A DNA stretch of 64,000 bases from Botryllus schlosseri (Eukaryota), in contig CM119373.1 of NCBI GenBank assembly GCA_051294905.1, positions 1,738,001 through 1,802,000 of the forward strand, in the 5' to 3' direction. The position numbers and the translations under genes were made by a program. The notes under the pieces are model-generated. The model did not search any database. It was not told the origin of the DNA and was given only the letters and a program-made list of their open reading frames with translations. Every line of letters starts with the position of its first letter. Within the stretch, counting starts at the first letter, position 1. Positions 14,157 to 60,736 of the stretch are shown piece by piece.

Positions 14157-14324
14157 TTGAAAGAGTTCGGTATCATCGACAATTCAATGAATGAAGATGG
14201 ATATGAGATACTCGTTGACATTCTGAAGCTGTCAGATTGCAAGGAATTGGCGCTCAAAAATTGTTGTCTCACCAAGACCAAGTTGCAAGGAGTATTGAAC
14301 GGATGTCGAAATCAAAATATCCAG
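14157..14324 (+). CDS. LRR exon copy 1 (two RI/NLR-type LRRs, 56 aa, phase 0-0) of a putative NLR-like gene
   Basis: tttcag|TTG...ATCCAG|gtgcgt; LKEFGIIDNSMNEDGYEILVDILKLSDCKELALKNCCLTKTKLQGVLNGCRNQNIQ has two LxxLxLxxN/C motifs about 28 aa apart; ctaat branch-like motif upstream. Confidence 0.8.
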
Positions 14325-16264
14325 GTGCGTCATCATGAACAATACGCAATATCCAAGAAGACATGTCCCCAACGATTCGGAATTTGTCGTCATCCTACTT
14401 CGAATCAAAAACGATGCAGCAGAAAATTGTTCACCATTTAATCTTTCGTTTACCAATACTCGTCGGAGGTAATTCGAATATTGCAGACGTTTAGTATTTT
14501 GCAACACAGACAACCTTGTATACTTCTGAAATGATTCACGACGCGACAACGTAGATATTATAAATATAGGAATATTCAGGACAGAAATCTAGCCGACGCG
14601 AATGTGAGAGTGAGAAAAATCGTTTTTCATGATGCGGTTCCATGCACCTGTTGTCATGGCTTGGAATGTGGGAATTCCAGAAACGTTTGGGCTGGTGAAA
14701 ATACTTTGCAGCTTTAGTATGGCGTCCTGATCTACTGCGACGTAATTGGCAGAAAAACGGCCAAGGTAAAATTTAGGATTTTGGGCCAAAAATTGCGCAC
14801 ATTTTCATACTTTTAGGTTGCTTATAAGCAGAGAGCTATGTCGATCAATGATTGTCTAATTGGGAGGTCAAGAAATAACAGCATGCACCATAGTGACTTA
14901 TATCAATTGGCCCATAGCATGATGTATCAATATGTATTACTTGCCCTCAGTTTTCGAACATACCCCTTGATCAACTCTGCCGGCGAATGCGATCACATGG
15001 GCTGAGAAAGGATTAATGTTTGATAGGAATACGTGAAATTATTAAGTTTAATTACGAAATTCATGAGTGAATCTGAAAGTTTCTCGCACTACGCGCGATC
15101 ATATAACCGTTCCCATAACATGACCACTCGCGATTTCGGTGCGTGTAGTAACCGGATATGAGTTAATAGATAAGGTTGGAGTTCACCGGAAATGGACATG
15201 GACACTTGGACAGCTTAAAATCGGTACTTGGCGTTAATCTAGTTCATCGCGACTATGCCATCCAATGTGGCCGCATGATTAATCGGAATGAGGCCGTGAA
15301 TAGCAAACAAGTTTGCCACTCCTGATTTACACCTTAGAAATGATTTCACACGTGCACTCACAATCAAAATCATTCAAAATTTTTCATCCCGTTTTAGAAG
15401 CATATACAATCTGCCAGCGACGTCAATACTAGTTGACAATATGTAACAGTATTTTAATATTCAGTAATATGTATTGTGCTGCATCCGGTATATATTGCGA
15501 TCGGTATCTTTCATTACGTGTAGCTATATCTCTAGTCGCAAAACCATGTATTCCATGGAGCCCATTGTAATATGCCATCATGTAGCAGAGTTTATGTATG
15601 CGCTGTTAACGAAACGACCGGCGGACGGTCCACCGATCAAGGATAATCCCAGAATTATCAAAAGAAAACTGAAATAACTCCACTTCTATGGTTTGGAATT
15701 GAGTCAAATTTGTTTTGCATCATTTTTGAAGACAGCGCAAAAATTTCATGGGGTTGGCAAAAAAATTTGAAAAAATATTTTTGTTGCATTTTTGGGCAAA
15801 TCCAAAATTTTCAAACTGTACGAAATCCGCGAATATTGGTTGGAATGAATTCAAATTTGGTGTGCGTCGTTTTTAAGGCAACCTAACGATTTAATCACGT
15901 AGCCAGCTAGATTCAGGAAAAAAGGTTCTTTTTGAACCGCGCTAATATACATCCATGGCACACGAAACCAGAACCCACCATAGACTTATATCGCGTTATA
16001 AATCGAGCACAAGATTTTTATCCAAATTTTGCATGCACGTAGGTGCGTAGGATTTATGACCGCTATATAATTCTGAGTTAGGTCCTGTTTTCGTCTACCA
16101 CCCTTTTCGCCCTATGGGTGTGAATACACACTGTTTTCGCTAAAAGTGCACTTGAATAAGACACACAGTTTACTCGCAAAACGCATAGTATATCATGCAT
16201 ATCAGAAGAAATTTTTATAGTCTACCTGCTGTAAAGCAAAATATACGAAAGAACAGTGCATTGA

Positions 16265-16705
16265 TTATTATTATTATTAATAATAATATACTTAAAAGCA
16301 GTTTTTGTGACGCATATTAGAAGAGACTCTTTGGGGTACAGAAATTTAATATACATTTTAATAATATATTCATTGTAAAATATATTAAAACCCGAACCTT
16401 TTCGAGTTGACACTCTTCAAGGACAATCGTCAGCAAATGGAGAATTTCAAAAACATGCATACAGCTGAATTGCATACAACCAATTATGACGTCATAGAAA
16501 AAAACAGCATGAAATACAAGCAAACCACGAGCGCAGCTAGTGGCCAATTTTTAGGTTGACTAAAAATTCCTTCTGCTGACACAAGCGGGGTCGGTGGATT
16601 TTAATATAAGTTGATTCCAGTGCAGACAGATGGAAATTAGTGCGTCCTCTACCTAATATAGAGAAACTTTCATCGCGATTGTTTTTAGCGCAAGTTGCAT
16701 TGCAA
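16265..16705 (-). mobile_element. Penelope-like element GIY-YIG C-terminus and 3' end
   Basis: FSILGRGRTNFHLSALESTYIKIHRPRLCQQKEF followed by non-coding sequence and an (ATT/AAT)n tail; separated from the RT fragment by a MITE remnant (~16706-17085). Confidence 0.7.
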
Positions 16706-17089
16706 ATTTGGTTCAATTCCAACCGGTGGAAGCGGAGTTATTGCCGCCGAAAAATTCGGATTTGAATAAAATAGTATTTACGGTGACCGATTCTTTGTTT
16801 GTGTTCGACGGCAATAACTCCGCTTCCACTGGTTGGAATGGAACCAAATTTGGTGAGCATCGTTTCTATAGACAGCCTAACACATTCATGGGGTGAACAG
16901 AAAATTTTCCAAATTTTTCAATATTTACTTTTATATAATTAATAGAAACTTTTTTTTACTGTAGCAAAGCGGTTACTGGCTGGAATTTGACCAAATTTTG
17001 TGTGTAGGCTAAAATTAGGTAACCTAACAATTTTATCAAGTAGCCAGTACGATTTGAGAAAAAAGTCATTTTTGAAGAGCCCTAATGTA

Positions 17090-17500
17090 TATATACATTC
17101 TCCCCAGACCGTTTGTTCGTGTTTTGTGATTTGTAGGGATTGAAATTACTGAGTTTTCTGTCCACAGAACTCTTGATGAGCGCGAATGTAAACGGATCAG
17201 CGACACAATGCGAATCATACATGGAACGCACTGGTTCCAAAATACCGATAAGCCACTTCGGGAGCTTGTGCTGAGCTGATCCAATCATAGAAAGAATTGG
17301 TCGAAGGGGCCGCTGGTTTTATGAGATTTTGTCAGTCCGTACATACGTGGCCTCTGTGCCCCGACCGGTCTGATGGAGGCGTAGACCTCAGGTGTTATGG
17401 AGCCCTTTTTCTCGAGGCTGAATAGTCGGCGCTGTATCCGTCTTTCGATCTTAGCGATGTTATCGAATTCAGCAGCGGGACCAACAACAACGGCAACGAC
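17090..17500 (-). mobile_element. Penelope-like element RT fragment (frameshifted)
   Basis: PVGAQRPRMYGLTKSHK..P / ILSMIGSAQHKLPKWLIGILEPV, the N-terminal region of Penelope RT. Confidence 0.8.
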
Positions 17501-17566
17501 GGTCATTTGCGTCACGACTTAACACTTGCCAATCGAATCGATATTTCGATAAGTAAATACAGTCAA

Positions 17567-18240
17567 CTAAACATTTAGTACTGTCTCTTGGTCTTCGCAA
17601 TGAATTCTCACAGGAAAGATAATATATAATCGGTAGTTAATATACTTTTCATGGTCCAGTACGGCAGCTGTAAACTGGCCTCTTTCGTTGGCGTACTTCG
17701 CACACTCGATAATAACGTGCTCTGCAGTTCCTGGAACATGCCATGTGGTAAAATCAGGGGTATCGGAGCATCCAATTTTGCTCAGATGGGAGTTGAGACG
17801 ACAGTGTCTGGTTCGCAATCTGAAAATGGTGGTTTCGGCGCGGTGTGGCGTAGTTGAACGTTTCGTGTAGATGTCAGGGCAGAAATGCTTGAATTGTGCT
17901 CCAGCGGTGGTTTCGATGAAACGTTGGTTCCCGTCTTGTCTACAGTGACTCAAAATCAATAAGTTGGCCTCGCTAGAAGTAATGTATACACTTTGGTCAA
18001 CGAAGTCATGTACCGCAGCCTCTTTCGCAAGTCGGTCAGCGACTTCATTCCCTTTAATACCACAGTGTTCTGGAATCCATATAACAGAAATATCGTTATG
18101 GCTTTCATGCAACAGATGGTGACTCAGTTATAATATTTGATTGGTAATAAAGTTATTTTCACCAAGATGGTTATTGGTTTTTTAACGACAGCAATGCATT
18201 CAAAGAGTCACTCCGGATAGCATTTCGTTCGATGGAATTT
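17567..18240 (-). mobile_element. Non-LTR retrotransposon fragment (I-group; RNase H plus degenerate CCHC finger)
   Basis: DSLNALLSL...ISVIWIPEHCGIKGNEVADRLAKEAA...IFRLRTRHCRLNSHL...TAEHVIIECAKY. Confidence 0.85.
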
Positions 18241-18627
18241 TCTTAAATAAATCCATATCACTCACAAAACGCGCAATATATCATGCATATGAGAAATCAT
18301 TGTATACTCTACCAGTTTCAAAGCAAAATATACGAAAGAACAGTGCATTGATTGATTCGATATACGTGTAATTACATTGCTTTGTTGCGCCGATAGCAGA
18401 CGATATATATAAACATAAGACCTTGGTAGCTTTCACACTTTATTTAACGTCCATTTGCGAATGATTATAACTTTATTAGTTACACGGGCTCTCGGAGCGC
18501 CGCTACTTCATCACCTACCTTCGTACCTATCTATCAAGCTACCAATGTCTTAAGTTTGTAATTACTTTGTGAGTCGAAAAAAACAAAAGGCCACTGCAAT
18601 GTGATCGATTGTCGCTTAATTACGGAT

Positions 18628-18870
18628 GAGAAAGTGTAGTGGGTACGGTAAGCGCCCACCAATTCGACGAACCGGGTTCGATTCCTATCGGAGGTTTATC
18701 TGGGCTCCTCTTCCCCCGCCGTAGCCGTTCTTACGGCGGCATAAAGCACTGTAAAAGACCCCACGAAAGATAGCACTCTCAAGGAATGGAAAGAACGAGT
18801 AGAAATGGCCCGCGGCTTCATAAAATGATCAAACACCGACACCATCGCATTGTGTCTTATCGCATTGTAC
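18628..18870 (+). mobile_element. tRNA-derived SINE
   Basis: A-box-like gtgtagtgg, B-box ggttcgattcc, core 'gggctcctc'. Confidence 0.65.
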
Positions 18871-19099
18871 ATTGTGTGTGACTTGTTCAGATGAAAAATA
18901 TAATTCAACCATGTTATGTTATGCTACACTCAAATTTTATTTCTTTGGCGATAAATCGGTGTTTGTCCAAATAGTACCCACCGTAAGAACTATTCGGCAC
19001 TATTACTCGCGAATTTTTTTCATTCCATCATCGAATCCACAAATTTCTTTATAATATGAGATTCGATAATTATTTACTTATGCGTGTGCGAGTGTAGAC

Positions 19100-20678
19100 C
19101 AGGGGTTGGCAACCTTTTGCTAGTCGCGGGCCAAATTTCGGGTGTACAACCTTTCGGCGGGCCGGATTTTTTCTTAGTACTATATTTTACGCTCACTTCG
19201 GTATATTATCCTACATTGCTGCAATCTCAATCATACCAATCCGAAGACACATGTATTTACACTTCAACGACACAGAATAATTGTGACAATTGACGCAGCT
19301 TGCTTAGTGAAAGGTTTTGGTAACAAGTCAGATGAAACAAGAATCAGACCCTATTCAAAATGGACGTCCGAAATACGTGATCTTAGCTTGCTCTTCGTGA
19401 ATTTCATTGTTCAAAACTATTGTTGACATGCGTACGTGCTTTCAAAAATCGATGCAATTTTTTTGCATTGCTGGTCAAGCTGGGATAAAGACCAATTTCA
19501 AGAACGTAGCCTACTCTTTGTCAAAGTCATGCAGCGATATGCTCTTTGCATGAAATTTGTCATTCAATTCAACTGCATCGCATTTCAGAAAGGCCCATTT
19601 GAAATTTTCAGGCAATATAATTGGCGTCCATATTAAACAGAGTACTGAATAGTCAGAATTCATTTTGTAGACAAGGAATGTCGAAGAAGCGGGTGAATAT
19701 TCAGTAGTTAAATTTCGTATCACAATTACAAATGCAGTGTTGGTACTAGGTTTTCTCTCCTCCAGTATAGAAAAGTGAGCATAATTTTCGTTGTACTGTT
19801 GACATTTCCAGAGTCACAGATTTGTTTTGAATGCGCCTCAACATCTCATGTATGTAGTTGTTTTCCCCCTGAAGTTGCAAGTTTAATTTGTTCAGATGTG
19901 ACGTTAAATGTACCAGGAAAGGAAGATGAGATACCCATTTTCGATTACAAGATTATGAGTCGGCGATATTTGTATCTTCGAGGAAAGTTGCTATTTCATT
20001 TCGCAGATCATACTCTCGTGTAAGCATAGCTGCTCGACTCAATGAGCGAACATGACAGATATAGGCCTACATGACATCGCCATATTGATTCTCTGCATCT
20101 AGTAATATCTGGCGTAACTGATACAGTTGATGAGACAAAAATCAGATTTAACAGTTTTCACATCGTGGCCAAAACACTATTCAGGTTTTTTGTCTTGGCA
20201 CACAATGCCTTCTGGAAAATCAAACTATAGACAGGCTAACTAACATACGGAGGCTAGTTATCTATAATTGAATAATTTGAGATTCCGTCATTGCGTCTGA
20301 GATGCTCCAAGCGCTTTTGAAGCTAAGGAAGAACACCTTTATTGTCACACCCCGTTAGAGGGATCAGCCCTTTAAAAAGGAAGAAACACCTTCGGTTGCG
20401 AGATACACCCGATTGATAAGCACTGATCCAGTCTAGTCTATCTCCATCTCCTACTTCAACCACCTTCGTTTTATGGCGTAACAATAGACCAATACGATGT
20501 AGGCTACTATTATATCGTAGCAATGCCGCATTTTTTCATGCAGCGCTGCACTGCAGATTGAAACTCATTATGAAGCCGCGGGCCGTATTCTTGTGATAAC
20601 TAATTATCATGTCGCGGGCCGGACGATTTCGCTTGGCGGGCCGGATCCGGCCCGCGGGCCGTAGGTTGCCGACCCTTG
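19100..20678 (-). mobile_element. Internally deleted hAT-Charlie/SPIN-Buster-like transposon
   Basis: TIR CAGGGGTTGGCAACCT/AGGTTGCCGACCCTTG, TSD GTGTAGAC, GCGGGCCG subterminal motifs; minus strand ~19300-19450 reads FESTYACQQ*F*TMKFTKSKLRSRISD, a hAT dimerisation-domain remnant. Confidence 0.88.
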
Positions 20679-23664
20679 GTGTAGACTGTAGAGTTTTTTT
20701 TAGCATTATGCCAAAATAATTTTCAAAATGTGTGCCGAAGTTTCATCTCCAGTATTTTTGAATGGGCAACACAACGTTTTCAGGAATCTCGACGAAACCA
20801 CAAAATCATTGTACTTGTACGTACATACATACATGGCTTACTTGCCGATGCATGCCTTATGCTCGCTACAGGCACACAAACGTTTAGAGCGGATCCTGAT
20901 ATAAATATGCAGCGGCATATAATTGAATACTTATCTATCGGAATTGTATACTATATTGTTCCACATAATTCCTTCGTCAATAATTCAACTGTATGAAGTC
21001 TATCCGCGAGCAGTATAACTAACCCTTCCCTTCATCAATAGCTTATCTTAAATTGATATTTGAGCAAACTTCAAGTCAAGAGTATGGATGTGCAAACCGG
21101 AATTTATTAGCTACGAAATTCTATATCCGAAAAGATATAAAGCAGATCGATATTGATCGAATGAACCCTAGCAATTTTGATCTGATGTCGGTTCATCGAA
21201 CCTGAACACTGATGAAAGTGCAATTCTTCAAAAAATATTACAAACCATAACGTATTCTTTATTGCAGTCTTAACATAGAGGTACCCTATATAAATAGGTT
21301 GATGTAGCAATTATACAAATCATTTACTATGTCAAAACAATAACACACGGTGTCGACCGATACTGATATCTTGATATCTAATATAATGAAAATCGATACC
21401 ACTACGAATAATATTAATAAAATTTCACCTCCTCCAGCTTCAGAAACTGCTCATCTTCGACAGTACAATACTCCCGGTGCCTATTATATGACGTGGCAGC
21501 TATTGCGAAATCCACTGCTACAACACCTATGGGTTGCTGGTTCTAGTCTGACCGATTTCTACTCTAGAATTCCTACCTAGATGTTTCAGGTTAATCTAGG
21601 CTCCTCCTCGCCATCTTATCCACATAACAGACTTGTAAAACTAGATAATTCTAGTTGTCTAATATCACTAAATTAGAGAGAAATGCCAGTAATCCAATTT
21701 GTAAATTATTCCTATGCTCTAATTTCAATTTTAATCTAATTTATTGTAGTCCTGAAAATGCCTTTTTGACCGCGGCGTGTTACACCGTGTCCCTCTTGCA
21801 CAGGGAAAACAGAGCCAAGCCGCTATCGCATTACTTACACCGTACAGAAATAGTAGTTATTGTGCGACGAATAATAGCCATACTGGCATAGCAGTTTGAT
21901 TGTTGGTTTTATTGAACAATTGTGACGCTTATCCCCTAATCAAGTTATTTGCGCCATGATAATGAATGTTGCAATGTTCATTGATCTTTGCCTTTGGAAA
22001 CTCTTTTCGGACTACTTCCAGTCACGCGTCCATTCATCATCGATATGTATCTCGTTTGTATCCGTCCTCGTCAGTGTCCTTTGTTGACGATTTTAGAAGC
22101 TCGACTTCAATTGATCAATTTGGGGTTTTCGTACGGTACTGCATACGCAGTGTGGTCAGCTACAAATGATTTGATATTGGGGCTAGACAGACATGTTGCT
22201 AGGTGAAAGACTATCTATCTCATCCTAAAGATTGATTGTGGGGACGCCCAGGGCCGTTTTCTAAGCGTCTCGGTTTTGGGCTTGGCGGTGTTGGGTCCAT
22301 TGTACGTCATGGCAATATGCCTATTCATATTCATATTAGCTGACTCTCCATCGATGCAATGCTGTTGCCATCGTTGAAGCCATTTCCGCTATAGCGAGGA
22401 ATAATAGTGTTGTCGCGCACAGACGAATAGGTTTATTTCAAACAGCAACAACAATAATTTGAAATTGAAATCAATTTTCGCATTTCAAAATACTTTATTC
22501 GCATTCTTTCAAATTCACAGATCAGATCGCCACCCTCAACATGCAGCCTCACGGGCCACGTGTTGATGACCCCTGGTATAGTGCAAAATGAGCAAAGCTT
22601 GATATACAGACGCTAACCAATCTCTTTGTTATGAGACTCCACTGTGATTGGATATGAACTGGACTTTTTTGCTGCATTTAACATTCAGAATTTCATTCAA
22701 TTTCAAAGTTTTTCCGAATTCAGTAGCCAAATTCTGATGCTAATTCTATTCTAATTTCGAAAAAAGCCGTATATAATTCGGAAAAGCTAAAAAATTCTTA
22801 GTTGTCCAAGTCTGCCGCGTAAATGGTGTCTCATAAAAGCATGAGTGGACCGTGCAGCAAGTCAGCAGCTATGGAATTTAAATGAAGCACATTGGCCTGG
22901 TGTAAATCACCATAGTATTTGACAAACCTTATGAATACCTCAAATCAAACAAAGAAACGACTAAAAAGGGAGCATAGAAATGCGTCAACTTATATCGTCG
23001 TTAGTGTCACTGATTTAGCGCTCCATAACTGTACTCAACAGGCAAATCATCGCATTTGGCCAATTCCATTGTTCGCGAATAAAGTCGTTGCTAGAATAAA
23101 AACACTATGATCCGTGATATGATTTAATGTACTATTATGTATATATGATTGATAATAAAGTATTCAAGTGAAAAGTAAGGACAGGTGGCAAAATTTTGAA
23201 CAGAGTTGACTGATAGTCCGGCCAGTGACAGATTTGAAGGTTTGAATCCGACCCGCGTCGCCATTTGAGTTTGAAAACCCTGCTCTAAGCTGAATCGCCA
23301 TGACCAGATAGCATACTTGTATGATCCACGGCTGCAACACCAATTGGTTGCGGGTTCGAGTCTGACCGAGGTCGACTCCAGAATTCCCAGCCAAGTTTTA
23401 GAGGTGCTGGGCTCCTATTCTTGCGGTTTCTTAAAAAAAGCCTAGAAGTGGACCGTGCTATGAGTGCTCTCAATATTGCAGGCCCCGAGTATTTTCTGCA
23501 CAACGATAAATGTATATTTTTAAAATTAAATGCCTAGTGGCTTTGCATTCAGGACAGTTAGTTTTACATCCAATCGAAATTCAAATCATTGGTAAAACAA
23601 AGTATATATTGCACGACATTAAAAGCTGGTGATTTTGTCTATTATAACATTTGAGATTCTATAT

Positions 23665-24851
23665 CAGAAGTCTCAAACTCAAATGTGCTCGCGGGCCAAT
23701 TTTCCAGTTTTGACGACGCCGCAGGCCGCAGCATCAACAGGGGTATTCCATGTCTTTCAATGTAGGCCGTGTTTGACAGGATGAAATTGTCGTATTGAAA
23801 GTGAGCCAATCCAACAGGCTGACATTCAACACTCATCACGAAAATGGGATTTACTCTTGTATCAATTTAGGCCTGGCATGAAAAAAAATTATCACATTTA
23901 TAACTATTTGAATAGAAGTGTTGTTGTATCTGATGTATATTAATTATAAGATATAGACGCCATGTGAGAGGACAATTATATAATGTTATCGTAAAAGCTA
24001 TCACGTTATAATTTTGCAGCTACTGTGAATATTTTGAATTTAACAGATTGATAATAGAGATTGATCTGCTATCACAGCATTTGGGGTTTAGCAGTATAGC
24101 CCAATCCAGGATCCGGGTATCCTCCTGATGAGCTCATGGTCAAATACTTTCGAATATTGGAGTAGAAAAATAACAATATAATATATTAATGAAAGTGTCA
24201 TAGTTATAGAAATATCGGCGCCAAACAACATCGTTACATCGTTGGAGCGTACCACTATGGTTTACTCGGTACCTTCAAGTGGCATTAATAACATGGTTTA
24301 GCGACCCAAGATGTAACTAACAGATTGCAAATGGTTGCCATAACTAATTGCTTAGTTAGCGAAATGCCAAGCTGCAACCTTCTGATCTATTACTATTCTC
24401 ATGACACGCCAATAGTTTGTTGCGTCTATGGCTCTAACCAATTCACGGATTTCCGAGTCCATCCGAATCCACTCCGGTCATTTTCATTTTGCCATCGAGT
24501 CAGCCCGAGTCTTAGTACTTCTAATAAAGGTCGCGTCCAAGTCTAACTCAAAAATTTCAGTCACGAATCGTCCAAGCATAGTGCTGTAAACTACTATCGT
24601 CTAAGGGTCAGGGTTTATCATCATCATCATGAATTGGAAATGTTCCGAAATAGGGAATCTCTACTGCATGGTCACGGATAGTGAAGTTGGATGAATAGTT
24701 TTAGGCTATCGGAGCAATTTAAGAAGGAATTTGCCCTTTACAACTTGAAAAGATATAAGTGGCACTTATATGTTGTAAAATTAATGAAAATCTGAAACGT
24801 CGTCGCGGGCCGCACGAAATGCTCTGGCGGGCCGCGTGTTTGAGACCTCTG
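23665..24851. mobile_element. hAT-type non-autonomous element
   Basis: TIR CAGAAGTCTCAAAC/GTTTGAGACCTCTG, TSD TTCTATAT; empty site 'gagattctatatagttgc' at ~13506, ~35557 and ~59072. Confidence 0.88.
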
Positions 24852-25430
24852 TTCTATATAGTTGCTAAGTGACGTAAAGACCGAGTGACTCATTTCGATT
24901 TCCCAAAAGTGTTTATGGGTACTGGCTGAGTGCCGTACAAACCTTAATACTGTCGTTATCAAGTGATCACTAGTAAATTAGTAATCATAAAAACTACATA
25001 AAGGTATGCTTTAAAGCTGCCAAACACAGTAGACCTGCCGTCTCCGTGGATTCAATCGGACAGATTTACATGCCGATATATTAGTGGCGACAACTTTTTG
25101 AAAGATGCAGAGATTGTTATCATCCCAGTGAATAGAATTCTACGTCGAAATCGGCCCCATATATTTGTTACTCAGAAGACAGAGTTTCCAAATAATGTCA
25201 GGGAACTAGCTCGTAGATAATTTTACAAATATCTATGGAACATTAAACGATTCGAGGATCAATTCTCGATTCGTTTCACAATTGCAATATTATTTCACTT
25301 GAAATGATGGCGAAGCAATCGTCTCACAGTAATGTAATACTAATAGTCTTTTACAGTTTACTGACAGAAAATTCGATTTCATTTTCGAAGCCTAATAAAA
25401 GTAATGTTATACGAGATTTTATCATTTTAG

Positions 25431-25598
25431 TTGCAAAAGCTCAATATCATCGACAGCTCAATGAATGAAGATGGATATGAAATACTCGTTCACATTATGA
25501 AGCTGTCAGATTGCAAGGAATTGGTGCTCCAAAATTGTTGTCTCACCAAGACTAAGTTGCAAGGAGTATTGAACGGATGTCGGGATCAAAATATACAG
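25431..25598 (+). CDS. LRR exon copy 2
   Basis: ttttag|...|gtgcgt, 168 bp, LQKLNIIDSSMNEDGYEILVHIMKLSDCKELVLQNCCLTKTKLQGVLNGCRDQNIQ. Confidence 0.8.
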
Positions 25599-25745
25599 GT
25601 GCGTCATCATGAACAATCCGTAATATCCAAGAGGACACGCCCCAAAGGATTCAGAATTGTTCGTCATCCTACTTTGCCTCAAAAACCATGCAGCATAAAA
25701 TCGTTCAGAATTTATTCTATCGTTTACCAATACTCGTCGGAGGTA

Positions 25746-25980
25746 TTGTATTGTATTGATAAGATACGACAGTGGTGCTTATAGCCTTATGAGGCTTATA
25801 TAATGGCAATTTCAACAGTTCAATGCATTTTTCTTGGCGACTTTTCTTGTTCTGTCTTCCACGAATCATTCTCTCTCTTCCGTACGCATTCATTAATCGG
25901 ATCTTTGCTGCCGACTTTCCAGCTCGGCTCACAGTACTTTCTGGGCTTTTTCGGTCACTGCAATCGTACTGAGGTCGGCG
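25746..25980 (-). mobile_element. 5'-truncated LINE/SINE 3' end with (CAATA)n tail
   Basis: Flanked by a ~12-bp TSD actcgt(c/t)ggagg; absent from other unit copies; shares the 'cagtggtgctt..gcctt..aggc' 3' motif with 48300-48600 and 62710-63010. Confidence 0.7.
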
Positions 25981-38894: not shown

Positions 38895-39059
38895 TACGAT
38901 TATGGATCTGTCAAAAACAACAAGATGCATGTTGTCAATACTGTCACAGGGAAAACCTATATATGAGGTGGGTACGACACTACCGCGTGGCAAGAAATGA
39001 TTAGGTGTTGGGCCTATAATTGAAGATCAGATTTTTTAAATACTTTTAGCGCACACATA

Positions 39060-44795: not shown

Positions 44796-44957
44796 TTGCA
44801 AAGGCTCATTATCATCGACAATTCAATGAATGAAGATGGATATGAAATACTCGTTCACATTCTGAAGCGGTCAGATTGCAAGAAATTGGTGCTCCAAGAT
44901 TGTTGTCTCACCAAGTTGCAAGGAGTATTGATCGGATGTCGGGATCAAAATATCCAG
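44796..44957 (+). CDS. LRR exon copy 3 (6-bp in-frame deletion)
   Basis: ttttag|...|gtgcgt, 162 bp, LQRLIIIDNSMNEDGYEILVHILKRSDCKKLVLQDCCLTK--LQGVLIGCRDQNIQ. Confidence 0.75.
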
Positions 44958-48600: not shown

Positions 48601-51499
48601 CTGATGTGTTAATTATGCTGTGGGAACCCCCACTAAATAGATAAATATATATGTTGTATTTATAAAATGTTTTAAAAATCTATGCATAGTGTACAAAAAT
48701 GAGTCAACCGTATTAGCAGTTGTGAAAGAACATCAACCGAACATCGTTTGAAAACGTTTGGATTCTTTAGTCTAGGAGTGTTATTCACTGTGTAGCCTGC
48801 GGGAGTGCAACTACTGAACCGGCATTACGACGCTGGGCATCTTCACGCTATATAATACATGACCTAGATATAGAGTTTCGGACAATATCCGACCATGCGA
48901 CTAACAGGCGGTCTATGCGTTGCCAAAGTGATTGGCGGCGATAAAACCTTGAAACAAAATAGCCGCTGCATCATGGACAAAACGTTAGACATTGATATGT
49001 CCACTGGCAAGGCGCCGAAGTGACCAGCGCCGAATGACCAGCGCCCGCACCCGCAGCTTGAACCGCACGTATCAAATGAGATCTGCCAAGGAAAATAATC
49101 AGCCCCGTGTCGTACCTCGCCTCAGAAACCATATAGCATAGAATCATTCACCTGTTAATCTACCGTTTACCAATACTCGTTAGACGCAATTGGAATACCA
49201 CAGGCAATTAGTACTTTGCAACACAGATTACTTTGGATATGTTTAAAATTGTTAACGACGCGACAGCGTAGATATTATCAATATATGAATATTCATGACA
49301 GTAATCTAGCCGACGAGGCCGAAAGAGTGATAAAAATAGTTTTAGTGTTTGATGATGCGGTACCATGCACCTGTTGTCAAAGCGTGGAATTTTGGAATCC
49401 TAGAATGATTGTTGCTGGTGTTAATGCTGAAAATAATTTGCAAGTTTGTTATGGCATCTCTGATCTACTGTAAGGTAGTCGCCAGAAAAGGAACAATGTT
49501 AAATTTAGGATTTGGGCCGAAAATTAGGCACACTTTCGTACTTTTAGGTTGCTTATAAATTATGGTGGAGAGAGATATGCCGATCAATGATTGTCTAATT
49601 GGAAGGTCAAGAATTAACAGCATGCAACAAAGTGACTAAAAACTATTAGCCCAGAGCAAGATGCATCATTGAGTATAAAACTTGCCCTCAGTTTTCTAAG
49701 ATACTTCTTGTTCAACTCTTCCAAGGGTATTCGAATATTGCATGCGTTTAGTATTTTGAAACACAGAGGACCTTTTATATTTTCAAAATTGTTCACGGCG
49801 CGACAACGTAGATATTATCAATATAGGAATATTGAGGACAGAAATCTAGCCGACGCGGCTGAAAGAGTGAGGCAAATTGTTTCAGTGTTTGATGATACGG
49901 TTCCATGCACCTGTTGTCATGGCTTGGAATTCGGGAATTCCAGAAACATTGTGGCTGGTGGAAATGCAGAAAGTAATGTGCAGGTTTGGTATGACGAAAT
50001 TCATTAGTGAATCTGAACACCTTCTTGGAGGTACATAACTTCAATATATAATTGAATAGTATATTCATATTGCAATGAACCCGAATATTTTCGGCTGACA
50101 CTCGTCAGGGTTGATCGTCAGCAACTAGTAGAGAATTCAAAAGAACAGCGTATATCAACACTCGTAACACAAAATATGACGTCACCAGCAGCATTAGTGA
50201 ATCTGGAAGTTTTTCGTTCCCATAACGTGACCACTCGCAATTTGGGTGCGTGTAGTAAGCGGATATGAAATAATATAGATAAGTCCGGAGCTCATCGGAA
50301 ATGGACATGGATCTCTCAATATTGGTAGTTGGCGTCCAGCTAGTTCATCGCGACTAAGCTCTGGAATGCTGCCGTAGGCTACATGATTAATCGATATGCA
50401 GCCGTGAATAGTAAAAAGGTTGGCGACCCCTTGGAAATGAATTCCAGCTAAGCTTTTCATTTAAGAGAGCTCGTTTCTCATGCACTTGAAATTAAAATCA
50501 TTCAAACTTTTTTTTATAATGGTGTCGAAGCATACACACTTATACAATCTTCCAGCGATTTCAATACCAATTGACAATATATACCAGTATTTTAATAATC
50601 TGTAATATGTATTGTGCTGCATCCGGAATATTTCGCGATCGGTATTTTTCGTTACATGTCGCTACATCTCTAATCGCAAAACCATGTATTCCAAGGCGCC
50701 CATTGTAAAATGCCAACATGTAACAAGGTTTTTGTTATCGCTGGTAACGAAACGACCGGCGAACGGTCATATTATCAATATCTATTATAGGATAATAACT
50801 CATGGTATAAATCTAGCCGACTGAGTGAAGAAAATCGATTTAGTGTTTGATGCTTGACTCATATGTACTCGGGATCCAATTTCCTAGTTTTTGATCACCC
50901 CGCTGGCCACAGCGTCAATATGGGTATGCAATGTATTTTGAAGTATGTCGTATTTGACGAGGTGAAATTGTTCGATTGAAGGTTAACCGAAATAGCAGAC
51001 TGAGATTCCACAAATATCGTGACATTGTGATTTACTATTTTTTAGCAATTTATGCGTTGCACGAATAAAAACCACATTCATAAATATTTGACTAGAACTG
51101 TCATTGTACTTGACAGGGAGTACGCATCATTTGTCAAAATTATGAGAAATAGGCAACATAGCCGAATCTAGTTTTAAGATATCATATTGATAAGTATAGG
51201 CTATTGATTACGTCATTGCCCAAGTCAAAATAAAACAGCGTTGGATTTAACTTCACTGGTGTTACAGCGGTGGAGCGTAGCACTACGGTATTCACCCTCT
51301 TAAATCGGCGATAAAGATATGGATAAAGGGGTCAAAGATGAAACTGACTACACATTCAGGGTGCAATAGAATGCTCACTGTTGTTATAATAACTTGCGTC
51401 GATAGCGAAATACCGTGTCACGAGCTCAATTCCAATCAGTCGAAGCGGAGTTATTGCCGTCGCAAAATTTTGGATTTGAATAAAATAGTATTTACGATT

Positions 51500-52720
51500 A
51501 CCAGAGAACCCGTCCCTTGGGGAACCCGTCCCTACCAACTCGGCCCTCGGAGAACCCGGCCCTTGGAGAACCCGGCCCTCGGGAAATTTTGCATATCAAG
51601 CACGCGTGGTCTACTTGTTGTCGTATTTACGGTGTTTTTCGACTACTCTGGACCTCGGAGAATGCGGCCCGCGAATAATTTTGTATCAAAAATGCATTAA
51701 ATGTGAAGCCGGCCCTCGGGAAATATTGTATTCACCGGCAACCCTAATATCCCACCTCCACCAACCCTAATATCCCACCCCCGGCAACCCTAATATCCCA
51801 CCCCCGGCAACCCTAATATCCTAACCCTAACCCTAATATCCTCCCCCAACCCAAATATCCCCCTCCCCCAACCCTAATATCCCCCTACCCCAACCCTAAT
51901 ATCCCACCTCCGGCAACCCTAATATCCCACCTCCACCAACCCTAATATTCCACCCCCGGCAACCCTAATATCCTAACCCTAACCCTAATATCCTCCCCCT
52001 ACCCTAATATCCCCCTCCCCCAACCCTAATATCCCACCTCCGGCAACCCTAATATCCCACCCCCGGCAACCCTAATATCCCCCTCCCCCAACCCTAATAT
52101 CCCACCTCCGGCAACCCTAATATCCCACCCCCGGCAACCCTAATATCCCACCCCCGGCAACCCTAATATCCTCCCCCTACCCTAATATCCCCCTCCCCCA
52201 ACCCTAATATCCCACCTCCGGCAACCCTAATATCCCACCCCCACCAACCCTAATATCCCACCCCCGGCAACCCTAATATCCCACCCCCGGCAACCCTAAT
52301 ATCCCACCCCGGCAACCCTAATATCCCATCCCCGGCAACCCTAATATCCCACCCCCGGCAACCCTAATATCCCACGCATGCCCTGACCTCCTTACAAGAC
52401 CGACAAATCAGTTGATAATAACATTATTACTTTATTAATTCATATTAATACTTGTGAATACACTTAATTTCTAAATTTCCCGAGGAATATTACTTTTCAT
52501 TCAGTGTGCATGCCTCTTATTTACTTCGCCTACGCTAAGGTGGGTGTCTGATCTTAATGGCTACTCCAAGTTTTTTCGACACCCTCCTATCTTTTCATTG
52601 TATCGCAGTCTTGTGATGTTTTGAAACGATGAAAATATTATTAAACCTGACTGACTGACTTCACCGAGGGCCGGGTTCTCCAAGGGCCGGGTTCTCCAAG
52701 GGACGGGTTCTCCGTAAATA
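51500..52720. mobile_element. Foldback-like element with tandem ~16-bp subterminal inverted repeats and an internal telomere-like minisatellite
   Basis: Left (ggagaacccg(t/g)ccct)x4, right (agggccgggttctcc)x3; inserted in a MITE whose empty version is at ~16770. Confidence 0.75.
51737..52375 (+). repeat. Minisatellite, ~21-bp unit GGCAACCCTAATATCCCACCCCC (about 30 copies)
   Basis: Directly visible; contains a CCCTAA telomere-like core. Confidence 0.95.
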
Positions 52721-54645: not shown

Positions 54646-55190
54646 CAACTTGACTTGACTAGTGACTTGACTAGTGACTTGACTCGTGACTTGACTTGAC
54701 TTGACTTGACTTGACTTGACTTGACTTGACTTGACTTGACTTGACTTGACTTGACTTGACTTGACTTGACTTGACTTGACTTGACTTGACTTGACTTGAC
54801 TTGACTTGACTTGACTTGACTTGACTTGACTTGACTTGACTTGACTTGACTTGACTTGACTTGACTTGACTTGACTTGACTTGACTTGACTTGACTTGAC
54901 TTGACTTGACTTGACTTGACTTGACTTGACTTGACTTGACTTGACTTGACTTGACTTGACTTGACTTGACTTGACTTGACTTGACTTGACTTGACTTGAC
55001 TTGACTTGACTTGACTTGACTTGACTTGACTTGACTTGACTTGACTTGACTTGACTTGACTTGACTTGACTTGACTTGACTTGACTTGACTTGACTTGAC
55101 TTGACTTGACTTGACTTGACTTGACTTGACTTGACTTGACTTGACTTGACTTGACTTGACTTGACTTGACTTGACTTGACTTGACTTGAC
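54646..55190 (+). repeat. (TTGAC)n pentanucleotide microsatellite, ~100 units
   Basis: Directly visible; adjoins a GACTCGAGTC-MITE remnant. Confidence 0.98.
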
Positions 55191-57399
55191 CCGAGTCACC
55201 TTTGAAAATCAAGTGACTTGACTTGACTCGAGTCAAAATGAATTGGCAACAAAACGTTTCCATGAATCTCGACGAAGTCACAAAATCAATGTAAATACAG
55301 GCCAATGGCACACAAAGGCAGACAAACGTTTACAGGGGATCCAAATATAAATAAGCAGTGGGACAGTATTGAATGCTTACACATCGGAATTGTATACTAT
55401 ATTGTTCCACATAATTCCATCGTTAATAATTCAACGGTATGAAGTGTATGCTCCAGCAGTATAGCTAACCCGTCGCTTCCACAATTGCATGTCTTAAATT
55501 GATATTTATCCAAACTTCAAGTCAAAAATATGGATGTGCGAACCTGAATCTAGTAGCTATGAAATTCTAAATCCGATATTGATCGAATGAACCCTGCAAG
55601 ATTGATATCTGAAATCGGTTCATCAAACAAACGGTATGTGCGAATTCACAATCGTAATATCGAGAATCAACATCTGTGACTTTTCAGTGTCTTCTGATGG
55701 GAGTGCAATTCTTCAAAAAATATCACAAACCATAACGTATTCTTTATTGCAGTCTTACCATAGCGGTACCCTATATAAAAAGATTGATGTGGCAATTATA
55801 CAATTCATTTTTTATGTCGAAACAATAATACACCGTGTCGACCGGCACTGATATCTTAATGTCTAATATAATGAAAATCGAAACCACTAAGAATAATATT
55901 GTTAAAATTTCGTCTCCACCAGCTTCAGAAACTGCCCATCTTCGACAGTACACTACTCCCGGGTTCTTATTATGACGTGGCGGAAATTGCAAAAGCCACC
56001 AAATGCGCCGAAGTGTGTGTACCGAACCCAATTCCAACGTCCACGTTTACGGTTTAATCTCTTGTATTCTTACCAACGCACACTCGGGGTCAACATCCAG
56101 TTACGACTAAAAAGAGTGGTGGGATAGCGTAGTGGTGTAATCCACTGCTGCAACACCTATGGGTTACTGGTGCGAGTGCGACCAATTTCGACTCTAGAAT
56201 TCCTAATTAAGAGTTGGAGGTTTAGCTAGGCTCCTCCTCGCCATCTCATACGCGTAACAGACTTGGACAACTAGATAATTCTAGTTGTCTAATTTCACTA
56301 AATTAGAGCGAAATAGCAGTAATCGAATTCTAATCTAATTTATAAAATTTTCTATGCTCCAATTCTAATTCTAATTCTGATTCTAATCTAAATTGAGAAA
56401 CGTTCTTATACTCTAATTTTAATTCTAATCTAATTCATTGTTTTCCTGAAAATGCCTATTTGACTGCGGCATGTTGCCGCGAGTCCCTCTCGTACAGGGA
56501 AGTCCAGAGCCAAGACGCCATCGCATTACTTGCACCGTACAGAAATAGTAGTTATTGTGCGACGAATAAGAGCCATACTGGCATAGTAGCTTGTTTGTTG
56601 GTTTTCTTGAACAATTGCGAGGCTTATTGAATAAGCATGTTATATGCGCCATGATAAGAAATGTTGCAATGTTCATTGATCTTTGCCTTATGAACTCTTT
56701 TCGGACTACTTCCAGTCACACACCCATTCATCATTGATATCCATCTCGTTTGCATACGACCTCGTCAGTGTCTTTTACCGACGATTTTCGAAACTCGACT
56801 TTAATTGATCAATCTGGGCTTTTCTTACGGCACTGCATACGCAGTGACGTCAGCTACTAACGATTCGATATTCGGGCAAGCCAGACATGTTGCTAGATGA
56901 AAGACTATCTCATCCTAAAGATTGGCTTTGGGGACGCCCTATAGCCCTAGTTTTCCAAGCGCCTCGGTGTCGAGTGCACTGTACGTCATGGCAATATCCC
57001 TATTCATGCCAGCTGACTCTCCATCGATGGAATGCTGTTGCCTTCGTTGAAGCTATTTCCGCTATAGCGAGGAATAGTGTTGTTTGGCACAGACGAATAG
57101 GTTCATTCAAAACTACAACAATAATAATTTGAAACTGAAATCATTTTCGCATTTCAAAATGCTTTATTCGCGTTCTTCCAAATTCACAGATCAGATCGCC
57201 GGCCGCAAAATACAACCTCGCGGGCCGCCTGTTGATGACCCCTGGTATTGTGCAAAACGAGCAAAGCTTAATATACGGACGTTAACCAATCTCTTTGTTA
57301 TGAGACTCCATTGTGATTTGATATGAACTGAACTTTTTGCTGCATTTATTTCTCATTCAAATTTTCATTCGATTTCCAAGTTTTTCCGAATTCAAATTC

Positions 57400-58195
57400 T
57401 GATGCTAATTATAATCTAATTTGGAAAAAAGCTGTGTAGCTTTAATTCTAATTCTAATCTAATTTGGAAAAATTGTATAGCTCTAATTCTAATTCTAATC
57501 TAATTTGGAAAAAGCTGTGTAGATGTAATTCTAATTCTATTATAATCTGGAAAAAAAGCTGTGTAGATTTAATTCTAATTTTAATTTAATTTGGAAAATA
57601 TGCATAGCTCTAATTATAATTCTAATATAATTTGGAAAAAGCTGTGTAGATCTAATTCTAATTCTAATCTAATTTGGAAAAAGCTGTGTAGATTTAATTC
57701 TAATTTCAATCTAATTTGGAAAAATTGTATAGCTCTAATTATAATTATAATCTAATTTGGAAAAAGCTGTGTAGATCTAATTCTAATTCTAATCTAATTT
57801 GGAAATAACTGTGTTGATCTAATTCTAATTCTATTCTAATCTGAAAAAAAGCTGTGTAGCTTTATTTCTAATTTGAATCTAATTTGGAAAAATTGTATAG
57901 CTCTAATTATAATTATAATCTAATTTGGAAAAAGCTGTGTGGATCTAATTCTAATTCTAATCTAATTTGGAAATAACTGTGTTGATCTAATTCTAATTCT
58001 ATTCTAATCTGAAAAAAAGCTGTGTAGCTTTATTTCTAATTTGAATCTAATTTGGAAAAATTGTATAGCTCTAATTATAATTCTAATCTAATTTGGAAAA
58101 AGCTGTGTAGATCTAATTCTAATTCTAATCTAATTTGGAAATAACTGTATAGCTCTAATTCTAATTCTAATATAATTTGTAAAAGCTTAAAAATT
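57400..58195 (+). repeat. ~41-bp satellite (AATTCTAATTCTAATCTAATTTGGAAAAAGCTGTGTAGATCT), about 19 copies
   Basis: Directly visible; only 1-4 units at paralogous sites (~1140, ~12470, ~22740, ~34600). Confidence 0.95.
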
Positions 58196-59674
58196 CTTAG
58201 TTGTCCAAGTAAGCGGTGTCATATAAAAGCATGAGTGGGCCTTGCAGCAAGTCAGCAGCTACGGATTTTAAATGAAGCACATTGTCCCGGTGTAAATGAC
58301 CATAGTATTCGACAAATCCCAAGATTACCTCAAAACAAACAAACAAGCGACTAAAAAGGGAGCATAAAAATACGCCAACTTCTATCGTCGTTACTGCCAC
58401 TGATTTAGCGCTCCATAACTGTACTCAACAGGCAAATCATCGCATTTTTGCCAATTTCATTGTTCGCGAATAAAGTCGTTGCTAGAATATAAACCCTATG
58501 ATCCGTGATATGTTCTAATGTACTAATATGTATGTATATAATGATAGATAATAAAGTATTCAAGTGAAAATAGGGACATGTGACAAAATCTTGAAATGAG
58601 TTGACTGATGGTCCGGCCTGTGAGAGATTTGAAGGTTTGCATCCGACCCGCGTCGCCTTTTCAGATTCACAATCCTGCTCTAAGCTGAATCGCCATGACG
58701 AGATAGCATAATGGTATGATCCACGGCTGTAACACCAATTGGTTGCGGGTTCGATGCTGACCGAGGTCCACTCCAGAATTCCCAGCCAAGTGTTACAGAT
58801 TTATCTAGGGCTATGCTACTCTTTATTCACCAGATCAGCGGTAGTGGTTTCTTAAAAAAGCCTAGAAGTGGATCGTGCTATGAGTGCTCTCAATATTGCA
58901 GGCCCTGAGTATCTTCTGCACAGCGATCAATGTATATTTTTATAATTGAATGCTTCTTGGCTTTGCATTCAGGACAGTTTGTTTTACATGCAATCGAAAT
59001 TTAAATCATTGGTAAAACAGAGTATATATTGCACGACATTAATATTGCGCACATTGTCTATTATAATATTTGAGATTCTATATAGTTGCTGAGTGACGTA
59101 AAGACCGAGTGAGTGTCTCACTTCGATTTCCCAAAAGTGTTTATGAATACTGGCTGAGTGCCGCAGAAACCCTATAGTACTGTCATTATTGAGTGATCAT
59201 TAGTAAATTAGTAATCATAAAAACTGCATAACGGTATGCTTTAAAGTTGCCAAACACAGTAGACCTGCCGTCTCCGTGGATTCAATCGGACAGATTTACT
59301 TGCCGACATCCTGATGGCGACCACTTTTTGAAGGAGGAATAGATTGCTATTATTCCAGTTAACAGAATTCAACGTCGAAATCAGCCAACACATATTTTAC
59401 TCAGAGGACCGAGTTTCCAAATAATGTCAGCCAAATAGCTCATAGGTAATTTTACAAATTTCTGTTGTGTTTGAGTGTATTCGATCAAATGAAATCTAGA
59501 ACATTCTACTCGACTCGAAGATCAATTCTCGTTTCGAAATCGTATCTTCCGAGCCGTCGATTTCGCCCAGTCACAGTTGCAAGATTATGGTATTTTGAAG
59601 TCTACTGACAGTAATTTCGATTTCATTTTCGAAGCATAATAAAAGTCATTTTATCCGATATTTTATCATTTTAG

Positions 59675-59842
59675 TTGCAACAGCTCGGAATCGTCGACAA
59701 CTCAATGAAAGAAGATGGATATGAAATACTCGTTCACATTCTGAAGCTGTCAGATTGCAAGAAATTGGTGCTCCAAGATTGTTGTCTCACCAACACCAAG
59801 TTGCAAGGAGTATTGAACGGAAGTCGGGATCAAAATATCCAG
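59675..59842 (+). CDS. LRR exon copy 4
   Basis: ttttag|...|gtgcgt, 168 bp, LQQLGIVDNSMKEDGYEILVHILKLSDCKKLVLQDCCLTNTKLQGVLNGSRDQNIQ. Confidence 0.72.
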
Positions 59843-60568
59843 GTGCGTCATCATGAACAATACGTAATATCCAAGAAGACATGACACATATTGCACACAT
59901 TGTCTATTATAATATTTGGGATTCTATATAGTTGCTGAGTGACGTAAAGACCGAGTGAGTGTCTCACTTCGATTTCCCAAAAGTGTTTATGAATACTGGC
60001 TGAGTGCCGTAGAAACCCTATAGTACTGTCTTTATTGAGTGATCATTAGTAAATTAGTAGTCATAAAAACTGCATAACGGTATGCTTTAAAGCTGCCAAA
60101 AACTGTAGACCCGTCTCCGTGGATTCACTCGGACAGATTTACATGCCGATATCCTAATGGCGACAACATTTTGAAAGAGGCAGAGATTGCTATCATTCCA
60201 GTCATCAGAATTCTACGTCGAAATCGGCCCCACATATTTGTTCCTCAGAAGGCCGAGTTTCAAATATTGCCAGGGAACTAGCTCGTAGGTAATTTTACAA
60301 ATCAATATTGTGTTTGATTGTACTCGATCAAATGAAATCTAAAACATTCTATTCGACTCGAGGATCAATTCTCGATTCGGAATCGTATCTTCCTAGCCCT
60401 GGATGTCGCCCGGCCACGATTGCAATATTATTTTACTTGAAATGATGGCGAAGCAATCGTAGCAGAGTAATGTGATACTAATAGTATTTTACAGTTTATT
60501 GACAGGAATTTCAATTTCATTTTCGAAGGCTAATGAAAGTAATGTTATACGATATTTTATCATTTTAG

Positions 60569-60736
60569 TTGCAAAGGCTCCTTATCATCGACAATTCAAT
60601 GACTGAAGATGGATATGAAATACTCGTTCACATTCTGAAACTGTCAGATTGCAAGGAATTGGCGCTCGCAAATTGTTGTCTCACCAAGACTAAGTTGCAA
60701 GGAGTGTTGAACGGATGTCGGGATCAAAATATCCAG
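60569..60736 (+). CDS. LRR exon copy 5
   Basis: ttttag|...|gtgcgt, 168 bp, LQRLLIIDNSMTEDGYEILVHILKLSDCKELALANCCLTKTKLQGVLNGCRDQNIQ. Confidence 0.8.

Follow-up and report, generated by a model that had tools for sequence, protein, structure and literature searches.

A duplicated array of two-LRR exon cassettes as a probable part of a large NLR-type gene in Botryllus schlosseri

Do five similar short exons, dispersed on one strand of repeat-rich DNA, belong to a single gene, and which kind of gene would it be? The question is raised by a stretch of the Botryllus schlosseri genome (positions 1738001-1802000 of the forward strand of contig CM119373.1, below C3, in the assembly GCA_051294905.1 of 495.5 Mb and 219 contigs), and the whole of these 64,000 nucleotides is referred to as the window. 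A preliminary description of the window proposed one large receptor gene with leucine-rich repeats (LRRs), whose solenoid would vary by unequal crossover and possibly by exon skipping. Our answer is that the five exons (c1-c5) are probably the constitutive or near-constitutive cassettes 1-5 of seven in one 124-kb gene of the NOD-like receptor (NLR) type, named here locus B, the solenoid of which was lengthened by exon-plus-intron duplication and the concave surface diversified cassette by cassette, with units moving between three sister loci.

Reading of the sequence confirmed the five plus-strand exons (Table 1): each has AG before its first base and GTGCGT after its last, is of phase 0-0 and contains no stop in frame. 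The encoded peptides have 56 residues, for example LQKLNIIDSSMNEDGYEILVHIMKLSDCKELVLQNCCLTKTKLQGVLNGCRDQNIQ. This five-exon pattern is far beyond chance. The exons are contained in tandem exon-plus-intron units of about 10.2 kb revealed by self-BLAST of the window, which bears out the growth by exon-plus-intron duplication assumed in the preliminary description. By the same comparison a local duplication of about 880 bp gave rise to the c4/c5 pair, and an older unit (702-2118) is devoid of the exon-bearing part. No other host exon had been recognised between the copies, and tblastn queries made of the cassette peptides and of the LRR exon types from upstream likewise found no further exon of this gene type between c1 and c5. 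The nucleotide identity of c5 to the copies at C3:1820251 and C3:2002881 is 98-99%, and identity to c5 among the cassettes of all three loci ranges from 82 to 96%.

In an alignment of 24 cassettes, the invariant and near-invariant positions L1-L4-I6-D8..M11 and L31-L33-C36-L38-T39 correspond to the pattern LxxLxLxx(N/C)xL (the consensus given in PMC6642158) repeated twice in 28+28 residues, each cassette comprising one A-type and one B-type ribonuclease-inhibitor-like LRR. For the profile of these 24 cassettes, the best solved structures were those of the ribonuclease inhibitor (1a4y and 1z7x), matched weakly (E=0.019, 17.9 bits), the alignments keeping to the register of the inhibitor's A/B repeat pairs; the two-repeat units of the ribonuclease-inhibitor type named in the preliminary description agree with this register, though at the E-value given. 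The AlphaFold2 model built from the cassette alignment has helices at residues 13-25 and 40-49 (predicted local distance difference test score, pLDDT, 71.8), and a Foldseek search of the PDB with this model, a small fragment of 56 residues, retrieved nothing at E<=0.001.

The NLR context, with a NACHT exon upstream on the plus strand and further LRR exons in the flanks, was also anticipated, and it was found. The NACHT exon of locus B (NACHT-B) is located 41 kb upstream of the window start; its PF05729 match (tested on C3:1696710-1697882) reaches 51.9 bits with E=1e-13 at a cut-off of 26.7, and all three NACHT exons of the region exceed this cut-off (50.4-55.1 bits). They carry the Walker A motif GEAGAGKST and end with HQTMQ followed by GT(G/T)AGT, the donor of NACHT-B being GTGAGT; an IDGLDQ motif is visible in the NACHT-B exon, and the first Met of its open reading frame (ORF) is residue 34. 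Between NACHT-B and c1 there are a putative winged-helix exon, a helical exon and two divergent LRR exons (LRR-a and LRR-b), and two more cassettes lie beyond the window. The four intermediate exons are homologous to their counterparts in locus C (the winged-helix pair is 84% identical); NOD2_WH scored 20.9 bits on the locus C ORF, below the cut-off of 23.1, and the isolated locus B exons gave no Pfam match.

Together these 12 exons form an in-frame chain of 3141 nt, i.e. 1047 codons with 0 stops, which spans 123,709 bp, the minimum extent of the gene, with introns of 726-19,197 bp; acceptors are AG in 11/11 cases, donors are GT in 12/12, and the phases match. The chain is a genomic construction rather than a transcript-proven one, its four exons between NACHT and the cassettes having been located by tblastn with the ORFs found 3' of NACHT-C. 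Nine two-LRR exons (about 18 LRRs) after NACHT give a protein of ordinary NLR size. The exons of locus B are presumably spliced together, and the protein may act as an intracellular sensor. In locus B, the intronic DNA that separates NACHT from the helical exon harbours ORFs of a zf-RVT retroelement and of DUF4371 (hAT-like) at positions 3108-3854 and 6961-7812 of stretch L024 and 1579-2235 of stretch L025, so that transposon load, besides duplication, accounts for the gene size.

Locus B has two close neighbours. When the c2 peptide was searched against the genome, 135 matches had E<=0.001 (150 of 302 candidates were scored), and 27 cassette copies were recognised on C3 between 1,487,510 and 2,152,528, with 68-98% identity to the c2 peptide, all on the plus strand and all open. 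The DNA search with c5 and its flanks, in which all 34 candidates were scored, led to the same 27 places and to zero additional broken copies; the nearest paralogues outside the 27 have just 81-82% nucleotide identity. Only three related NACHT exons are present in C3:1.4-2.2 Mb (at 1,422,156, 1,696,722 and 1,929,385, all on the plus strand), and they are followed by 5 cassettes in locus A, 7 in locus B (five of them in the window) and 15 in locus C; no further cassette was found between C3:1,820,418 and NACHT-C. For loci A and C, the internal arrangement was derived from search coordinates alone. The sequence was read for 22 of the 27 copies, namely the 5 of the window and 17 in the stretches L002-L020, the other five not being included; all 22 display AG, then 168 bp (162 in c3), then GTGCGT, with an open frame.

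Other NLR clusters of the same genome possess the same kind of exon with introns of just 0.6-3 kb (e.g., C3:7.186-7.194 Mb), and therefore the long duplicated introns are peculiar to the three loci considered here. Another type of LRR exon (...DSTMPADAYHDVAAVVKATKC...), with a relationship to LRR-b, is located in stretch L042 (C3:2017905-2018075), at C3:2118076 and at positions 5321-5587 of stretch L043. Since it recurs both in the locus C array and in a compact paralogue (L043), the arrays are not built of a single cassette type.

DNA identity of the NACHT exons among loci A, B and C is 79.5-84.8% (79.5% for B versus C), while the noncoding flanks of the cassettes are 94-99.4% identical between B and C; for L017 and L020 the identity is 99.4% and 99.3% over 1.5 kb per side. 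In addition, the B and C copies are intermixed in the copy tree. Because the flanks are far more alike than the NACHT exons and the tree is intermixed, the units appear to have been copied or exchanged recently, long after the NACHT divergence. Recombination (unequal or ectopic), conversion and segmental duplication are candidate mechanisms, among which the data are neutral.

Selection on the cassettes was addressed with an alignment of 21 copies and their 700-bp flanks (L005 was omitted because one base 3' of its donor failed the motif filter). The mean pairwise identity was 0.929 for exon columns and about 0.89 for the upstream flank; on the downstream side it was 0.88 over the first 50 columns and 0.78 farther on. 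Under Fitch parsimony the exon experienced 0.673 changes per site (113 changes in total) compared with 1.272 in the upstream and 2.058 in the downstream flank. The AG and the first 12 intron bases showed 0 changes, and at the intron rate the invariance of the eight core splice positions has P ~4e-5. Of the 504 single substitutions that the exon allows, 30 introduce a stop codon, and the probability of 0 stops in 113 random substitutions is 0.001. Indel events numbered 1 in the exon (in frame), 4 in the upstream flank and 14 in the downstream flank, and the preliminary observation of a sole, in-frame exonic indel amid decayed flanks holds with this one event versus 18, the flanks also containing transposon ORFs. 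A conserved element just 3' of the donor, which was striking in the five window copies, was rejected: in the 21 copies only its first ~20 bases are slow (0.4 changes/site), which fits an ordinary donor constraint.

The changes within the exon are unevenly distributed, 73 of the 113 substitutions being confined to codons 3, 5, 7, 9, 12, 30, 32, 34 and 35. For the 22 read copies, the Nei-Gojobori dN/dS was 0.72 overall and, with sites chosen post hoc, 0.24 in 48 framework codons and 2.09 in eight variable codons. To avoid circularity, a concave set was fixed a priori as the x positions of both LxxLxLxx strands (codons 2, 3, 5, 7, 8, 29, 30, 32, 34 and 35), and dN/dS was 1.72 in these 10 codons and 0.29 in the other 46. 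The 10 concave codons carry 27 of the 44 minimal amino-acid replacements (binomial p=1.8e-10), and the framework codons change about 4-4.5x slower per site than the upstream intron. The exon dS (0.096) is near the flank divergence (~0.11); therefore, synonymous sites are neutral and the duplications belong to one age class. By these sequence comparisons the cassettes are selectively maintained, and their predicted ligand-facing residues are diversifying, as the preliminary description had supposed for the array.

In this explanation the locus B array grew by tandem duplication of the ~10-kb intron-plus-exon units, and it may still trade such units with the two sister loci, whether through recombination of an unequal or ectopic kind or through conversion. 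Selection preserves the reading frame, the splice signals and the framework of the LRRs and favours replacements at the x positions of LxxLxLxx, i.e. on the predicted concave, ligand-facing strand, while recombination may change the cassette number. The outcome would be a solenoid of ~18 LRRs, its binding surface being a mosaic of diversified cassettes.

Relatives of the cassettes are known from the ascidian Styela clava. HMMER with the cassette profile against 1.84 billion representative proteins returned 33 proteins at E<=0.001, the best of which are uncharacterised proteins of this species: XP_077976009.1 (1383 aa, 21 matched stretches), XP_039248824.1 (2508 aa, 23 matched stretches, with NACHT and NOD2_WH) and XP_077976001.1 (1650 aa, 9 matched stretches, with Death, NACHT and NOD2_WH). 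The NACHT-B exon aligns with XP_039248824.1 over its whole length (30% identity, E=1e-55), with a shared F-x-H-Q-x-x-Q motif as the point where the alignment ends. Word-based homologue searches retrieved no longer protein with cassette c2 and a single distant match with the NACHT exon (Ciona NLRC5-like, 29%). The Styela models combine NACHT with near-identical two-LRR runs, and therefore such a family exists in ascidian gene models. They resemble locus B in having NACHT and a NOD2-type winged helix (putative at locus B) followed by long runs of similar 56-57-residue two-LRR units; they differ in the low identity (~30%) and in the Death domain at the N-terminus of one Styela protein, none having been found at locus B, a comparison that holds at the protein level only. 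The annotated isoforms of one Styela clava relative are identical to residue 1322 inside the array and then have different ends, which hints that the array length may vary at the RNA level in Styela, insofar as automatic models of another species can indicate it.

Four systems described in the literature help to place the array. In human NLRP3, Hoss et al. 2019 found every LRR exon to be 171 bp long and to encode two LRRs of 28 and 29 residues, with the exon border at a constant strand position and a modularity called a precondition for alternative splicing; these modular exons are indeed alternatively spliced (PMC6642158). Vertebrate NLRs thus share with locus B two LRRs per exon, the constant border, frame-safe skipping and the NACHT-LRR architecture (PMC6642158), whereas locus B has 168 bp (28/28) instead of 171, introns of 0.7-19 kb duplicated with the exon, cassettes 82-96% identical and substitutions clustered at concave positions. 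The zebrafish NLR-B30.2 family is similar in its lineage-specific NLR expansion, duplicated LRRs of variable number and conversion among members; however, Howe et al. 2016 call its LRRs “not particularly variable” and regard B30.2 as the probable module of recognition (PMC4852459), whereas no B30.2 was found at locus B and the variable part is represented by the LRR concave positions.

Two further systems come from outside the animals. For the fungal NACHT-WD genes (HNWD/het-d/het-e), Paoletti et al. 2007 describe concerted evolution of the repeats, both inside a locus and from one locus to another, and positive diversifying selection on four residues of the interaction surface in each repeat (PMC1805685). 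Like locus B, they concern a NACHT protein with near-identical C-terminal repeats exchanged within and between loci and with a few diversifying surface residues per repeat, but these repeats are WD40 units in one exon, while locus B has LRR pairs, each in its own exon within a duplicated intron, and resides in an animal genome. The brown-alga ROCO genes of Teng et al. 2024 have single-LRR exons, exon shuffling, positively selected concave sites and alternative splicing of LRR exons (PMC11378527). The symmetric exon per LRR unit, the intense exon duplication and the positive selection on the concave face are alike; the 72-bp phase-2 exons with one LRR each, the ROC-COR GTPase instead of NACHT and the unrelated lineage are different (PMC11378527). 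Conceptual precedents (fungal NACHT-WD, brown-alga ROCO) are thus already in print; full-text literature searches found no paper on such tunicate NLR arrays, which does not prove that none exists.

A number of observations weigh against the proposed gene and are best taken together. At its 5' side, no start or N-terminal effector domain was detected by Pfam in the 44 plus-strand ORFs of at least 55 aa within 18.7 kb upstream, and comparison of the regions upstream of loci A, B and C gave only frame-broken noncoding similarity with no conserved coding block. At its 3' side, tblastx of the compact paralogue (L043) against the 40 kb following the last cassette revealed no terminal exon or stop, all matches being to repeats on the opposite strand, and tblastn with the three Styela proteins, C-terminal tails included, had no match past the last cassette. 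An N-terminal effector domain (CARD, PYD, Death, etc.) is not universal among NLRs. As to the cassettes themselves, Pfam recognised no family at E<=1 in the five single cassettes, the ribonuclease-inhibitor profile match has just E=0.019, and c3 with its shortened repeat and c4 with C50S are possibly weaker members. Five of the 27 copies are outside the codon analysis, and the use of one tree for recombining copies overcounts changes in the exon and flanks alike and inflates homoplasy. The pairwise and state-count measures are tree-independent and go in the same direction.

To these points the RNA data are added. RNA-seq depth was measured over window positions 8000-27500, which include c1 and c2, in three bulk runs labelled as the same species (X4, X6 and X8; 1.9, 1.1 and 1.5 Gb, i.e. 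6, 6 and 13% of the runs). The depth in the c1 bin was 0 on both strands in all three, that in the c2 bin was 0.03, 0.14 and 0, and no 14324->25431 junction was listed, so the exon-to-exon junctions by which the preliminary description had proposed to verify the gene did not appear for c1->c2; reads in this region piled up on repeats only. By a rough estimate, a transcript of ~1 transcript per million (TPM) would give about 1x depth in X4, and therefore c1 and c2 are at most very weakly expressed in the sampled runs. This blank is the main evidence against an active gene, but it is weak given the 6-13% sampling and the two exons, and it does not outweigh the selection signal; NLR expression restricted to certain tissues or challenges would explain it. 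A search of sequencing runs with the NACHT-B exon listed no RNA run and is not used as evidence.

The one data set listed for the NACHT-B exon, X1 (a contig set of unknown kind, share 0.41), was rejected as a sign of expression: it covers all 30 bins including introns, like low-coverage DNA, and its 107-nt contig on the 3' part of c2 (25492-25598, ending at the last exon base) has a depth of 23, close to the genomic cassette number (27), as a collapsed k-mer path of DNA and not RNA would. Two repeats stand out in the measured region. Within 18640-18900, a B box like that of tRNA genes (GGTTCGATTCC) marks a short element that reaches ~330x, 70x and 55x on both strands in the three RNA runs, and loose read ends run into poly(A) after ~18897; ARAGORN and Rfam made no call, and the element is probably a tRNA-derived short interspersed nuclear element (SINE) transcribed from many genomic copies. 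The stretch 26228-26878 in the c2-c3 intron is a high-copy dispersed repeat with a depth of ~11,000 in X1 and ~25x in two RNA runs.

Could the array then be a silent relic, a young duplicated NLR tail that is no longer, or never was, transcribed and whose exons are intact through youth or through conversion from a few functional copies? The flank divergence of just ~11%, some unit pairs with 99% identity, the missing terminal exon and N-terminal domain and the unusual changes in c3 and c4 are compatible with it, and in our tabulation of the evidence only the lack of RNA reads on c1 and c2 positively favours it. We nevertheless consider a relic unlikely: 113 inferred substitutions with 0 stops (p=0.001), framework codons with ~4.5x fewer changes per site than the upstream intron, invariant splice sites and first 12 intron bases and 0 broken copies among 27 at the DNA level are hard to reconcile with idleness, and outside paralogues of only 81-82% identity leave no obvious external donor for conversion. 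The same splice signals bear on the possibility that the cassettes are an unspliced reservoir of germline or somatic conversion templates for an expressed copy, similar to the cassettes of lamprey variable lymphocyte receptors (VLRs) or the chicken pseudo-V genes. Units exchanged between loci and many near-identical cassettes with variable surface residues would suit such donors; yet cassettes of the VLR type are without splice signals and flank an incomplete germline gene, while 22 of the 22 read cassettes have AG and GTGCGT, are collinear and are in frame with the gene. Pure donors would not need perfect AG/GTGCGT borders with 12 invariant intron bases, and the cassettes are also on the same strand, collinear and in frame with the NACHT exon; this role is very improbable. 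Attribution of each exon to a separate complete gene is scarcely tenable: spacing of 0.9-19 kb would leave space for it, but there are only three related NACHT exons in C3:1.4-2.2 Mb, no other host exon was found between the cassettes by the tblastn queries described above, and there is no long non-transposon ORF in the window.

A regulated choice of cassettes by alternative or mutually exclusive splicing or by alternative 3' ends, giving many isoforms per locus, was also considered. In exclusive exon arrays of the Dscam type, a docking site is complementary to a selector beside each variant exon. Pairing between the 18.6-kb intron before c1 and the cassette flanks gave a best z=-3.4 of ~930 windows with no outlier, the longest complementary word being an A/T-only 13-mer. 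The RNA runs gave no cassette signal at c1 and c2, and the seven cassettes together yield a protein of ordinary NLR size (1047 codons). Any subset of cassettes would remain in frame, as all have phase 0-0, the Styela clava isoforms diverge after residue 1322 within the array, and alternative splicing of modular LRR exons is on record for human NLRP3 (PMC6642158) and brown-alga ROCO (PMC11378527); on balance we regard regulated choice as quite unlikely. We thus retain the reading of c1-c5 as cassettes 1-5 of the seven in the locus B gene. An extension of it, in which the three neighbouring loci constitute a recombining cassette system with germline shuffling and possibly with splicing or 3'-end choice, so that individuals carry and express different hypervariable LRR mosaics, would give animals, apparently in the tunicate lineage, an equivalent of the fungal NACHT-WD repertoire of non-self recognition, possibly serving pathogen recognition or allorecognition; this picture is speculative and, as a whole, rather doubtful.

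The remaining features of the window are those of a repeat-laden region: G+C is 39-40%, dispersed repeats are numerous, long bacterial-type ORFs are absent, and Rfam and tRNA scans gave no calls. The 8.6-kb insertion in the third unit is probably a DNA transposon; on its ORFs, Pfam found DUF4218 below the cut-off (19.3 bits, cut-off 27) and DUF4806 above it (27.3 bits, cut-off 25). Within the duplication unit, a 42-bp minisatellite has 3.7 copies in U1 (12456-12612) and 18.7 in U4 (57398-58184), with a 168-bp higher-order period. The interval 54648-55190 is a pure (ACTTG)n microsatellite (~107 copies, 97% matches) and yields long artefactual ORFs on the minus strand, and 51735-52375 is a C-rich 23-bp tandem repeat (68-bp higher-order) of ~29 copies with the strongest negative GC skew of the window.

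Table 1. Features of the window and of the locus B exon chain (positions are those of the window unless prefixed with C3).
Feature	Position	Strand	Remarks
NACHT exon	C3:1696710-1697861	+	1152 nt
Winged-helix exon	C3:1700162-1700324	+	163 nt; putative; contains QEFCCALH...
Helical exon	C3:1715637-1715956	+	320 nt
LRR-a exon, divergent	C3:1731751-1731918	+	168 nt
LRR-b exon, divergent	C3:1733274-1733441	+	168 nt
Seven cassettes	C3:1752157-1820418	+	168 nt each, c3 162
LRR cassette c1, exon 6 of the 12-exon locus B chain	14157-14324	+	168 bp, 56 aa; two ribonuclease-inhibitor-type LRRs; AG/GTGCGT borders; open frame
LRR cassette c2, exon 7 of the locus B chain	25431-25598	+	168 bp
LRR cassette c3, exon 8 of the locus B chain	44796-44957	+	162 bp; 6-bp in-frame deletion, codons 40-41; N48I replacement
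LRR cassette c4, exon 9 of the locus B chain	59675-59842	+	168 bp; longest branch in copy tree; framework C50S
LRR cassette c5, exon 10 of the locus B chain	60569-60736	+	168 bp; starts 726 bp after c4
Unit U1 (~10.2 kb, intron + c1)	11665-21999	+	self-BLAST; repeat families D4-D20
Unit U2 (intron + c2)	21920-33886	+	self-BLAST
Unit U3 (intron + c3), swollen by insertions and satellites	33807-56689	+	self-BLAST
Unit U4, truncated, end just past c4	56615-59883	+	self-BLAST
Unit U5, begins ~670 bp before c5	59900-62113+	+	self-BLAST
8.6-kb insertion in U3 relative to U1	35689-44275		breakpoints from self-BLAST
ORF of 710 aa inside the 8.6-kb insertion	39060-41192	-	transposase-like
ORF of 169 aa inside the 8.6-kb insertion	37260-37769	-	transposase-like
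Two partial exon-less copies of the cassette-downstream segment (equivalent 14393-14981), inside U3	49110-49965	+	self-BLAST
Retroelement fragment, RNase H tail, c1-c2 intron	17567-18127	-	Pfam RNase_H 23.7 bits, below cut-off 25.8

Accounts of NLR expansions in animals usually speak of many genes whose LRRs are rather uniform. At these loci the diversity would be within the gene: near-identical two-LRR exons are copied with an intron of ~10 kb, remain open and spliceable, appear to be exchanged among three loci and show most of their differences at residues predicted to face the ligand. In this way 124 kb can be taken up by a protein whose size is ordinary (~1047 codons), which is a warning for annotation since dispersed 168-bp exons are easily overlooked. 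If expressed, locus B would be a concrete example, from an invertebrate of the chordate branch, of how the turnover of exon cassettes diversifies a receptor, parallel to the fungal NACHT-WD, brown-alga ROCO and plant NLR systems.

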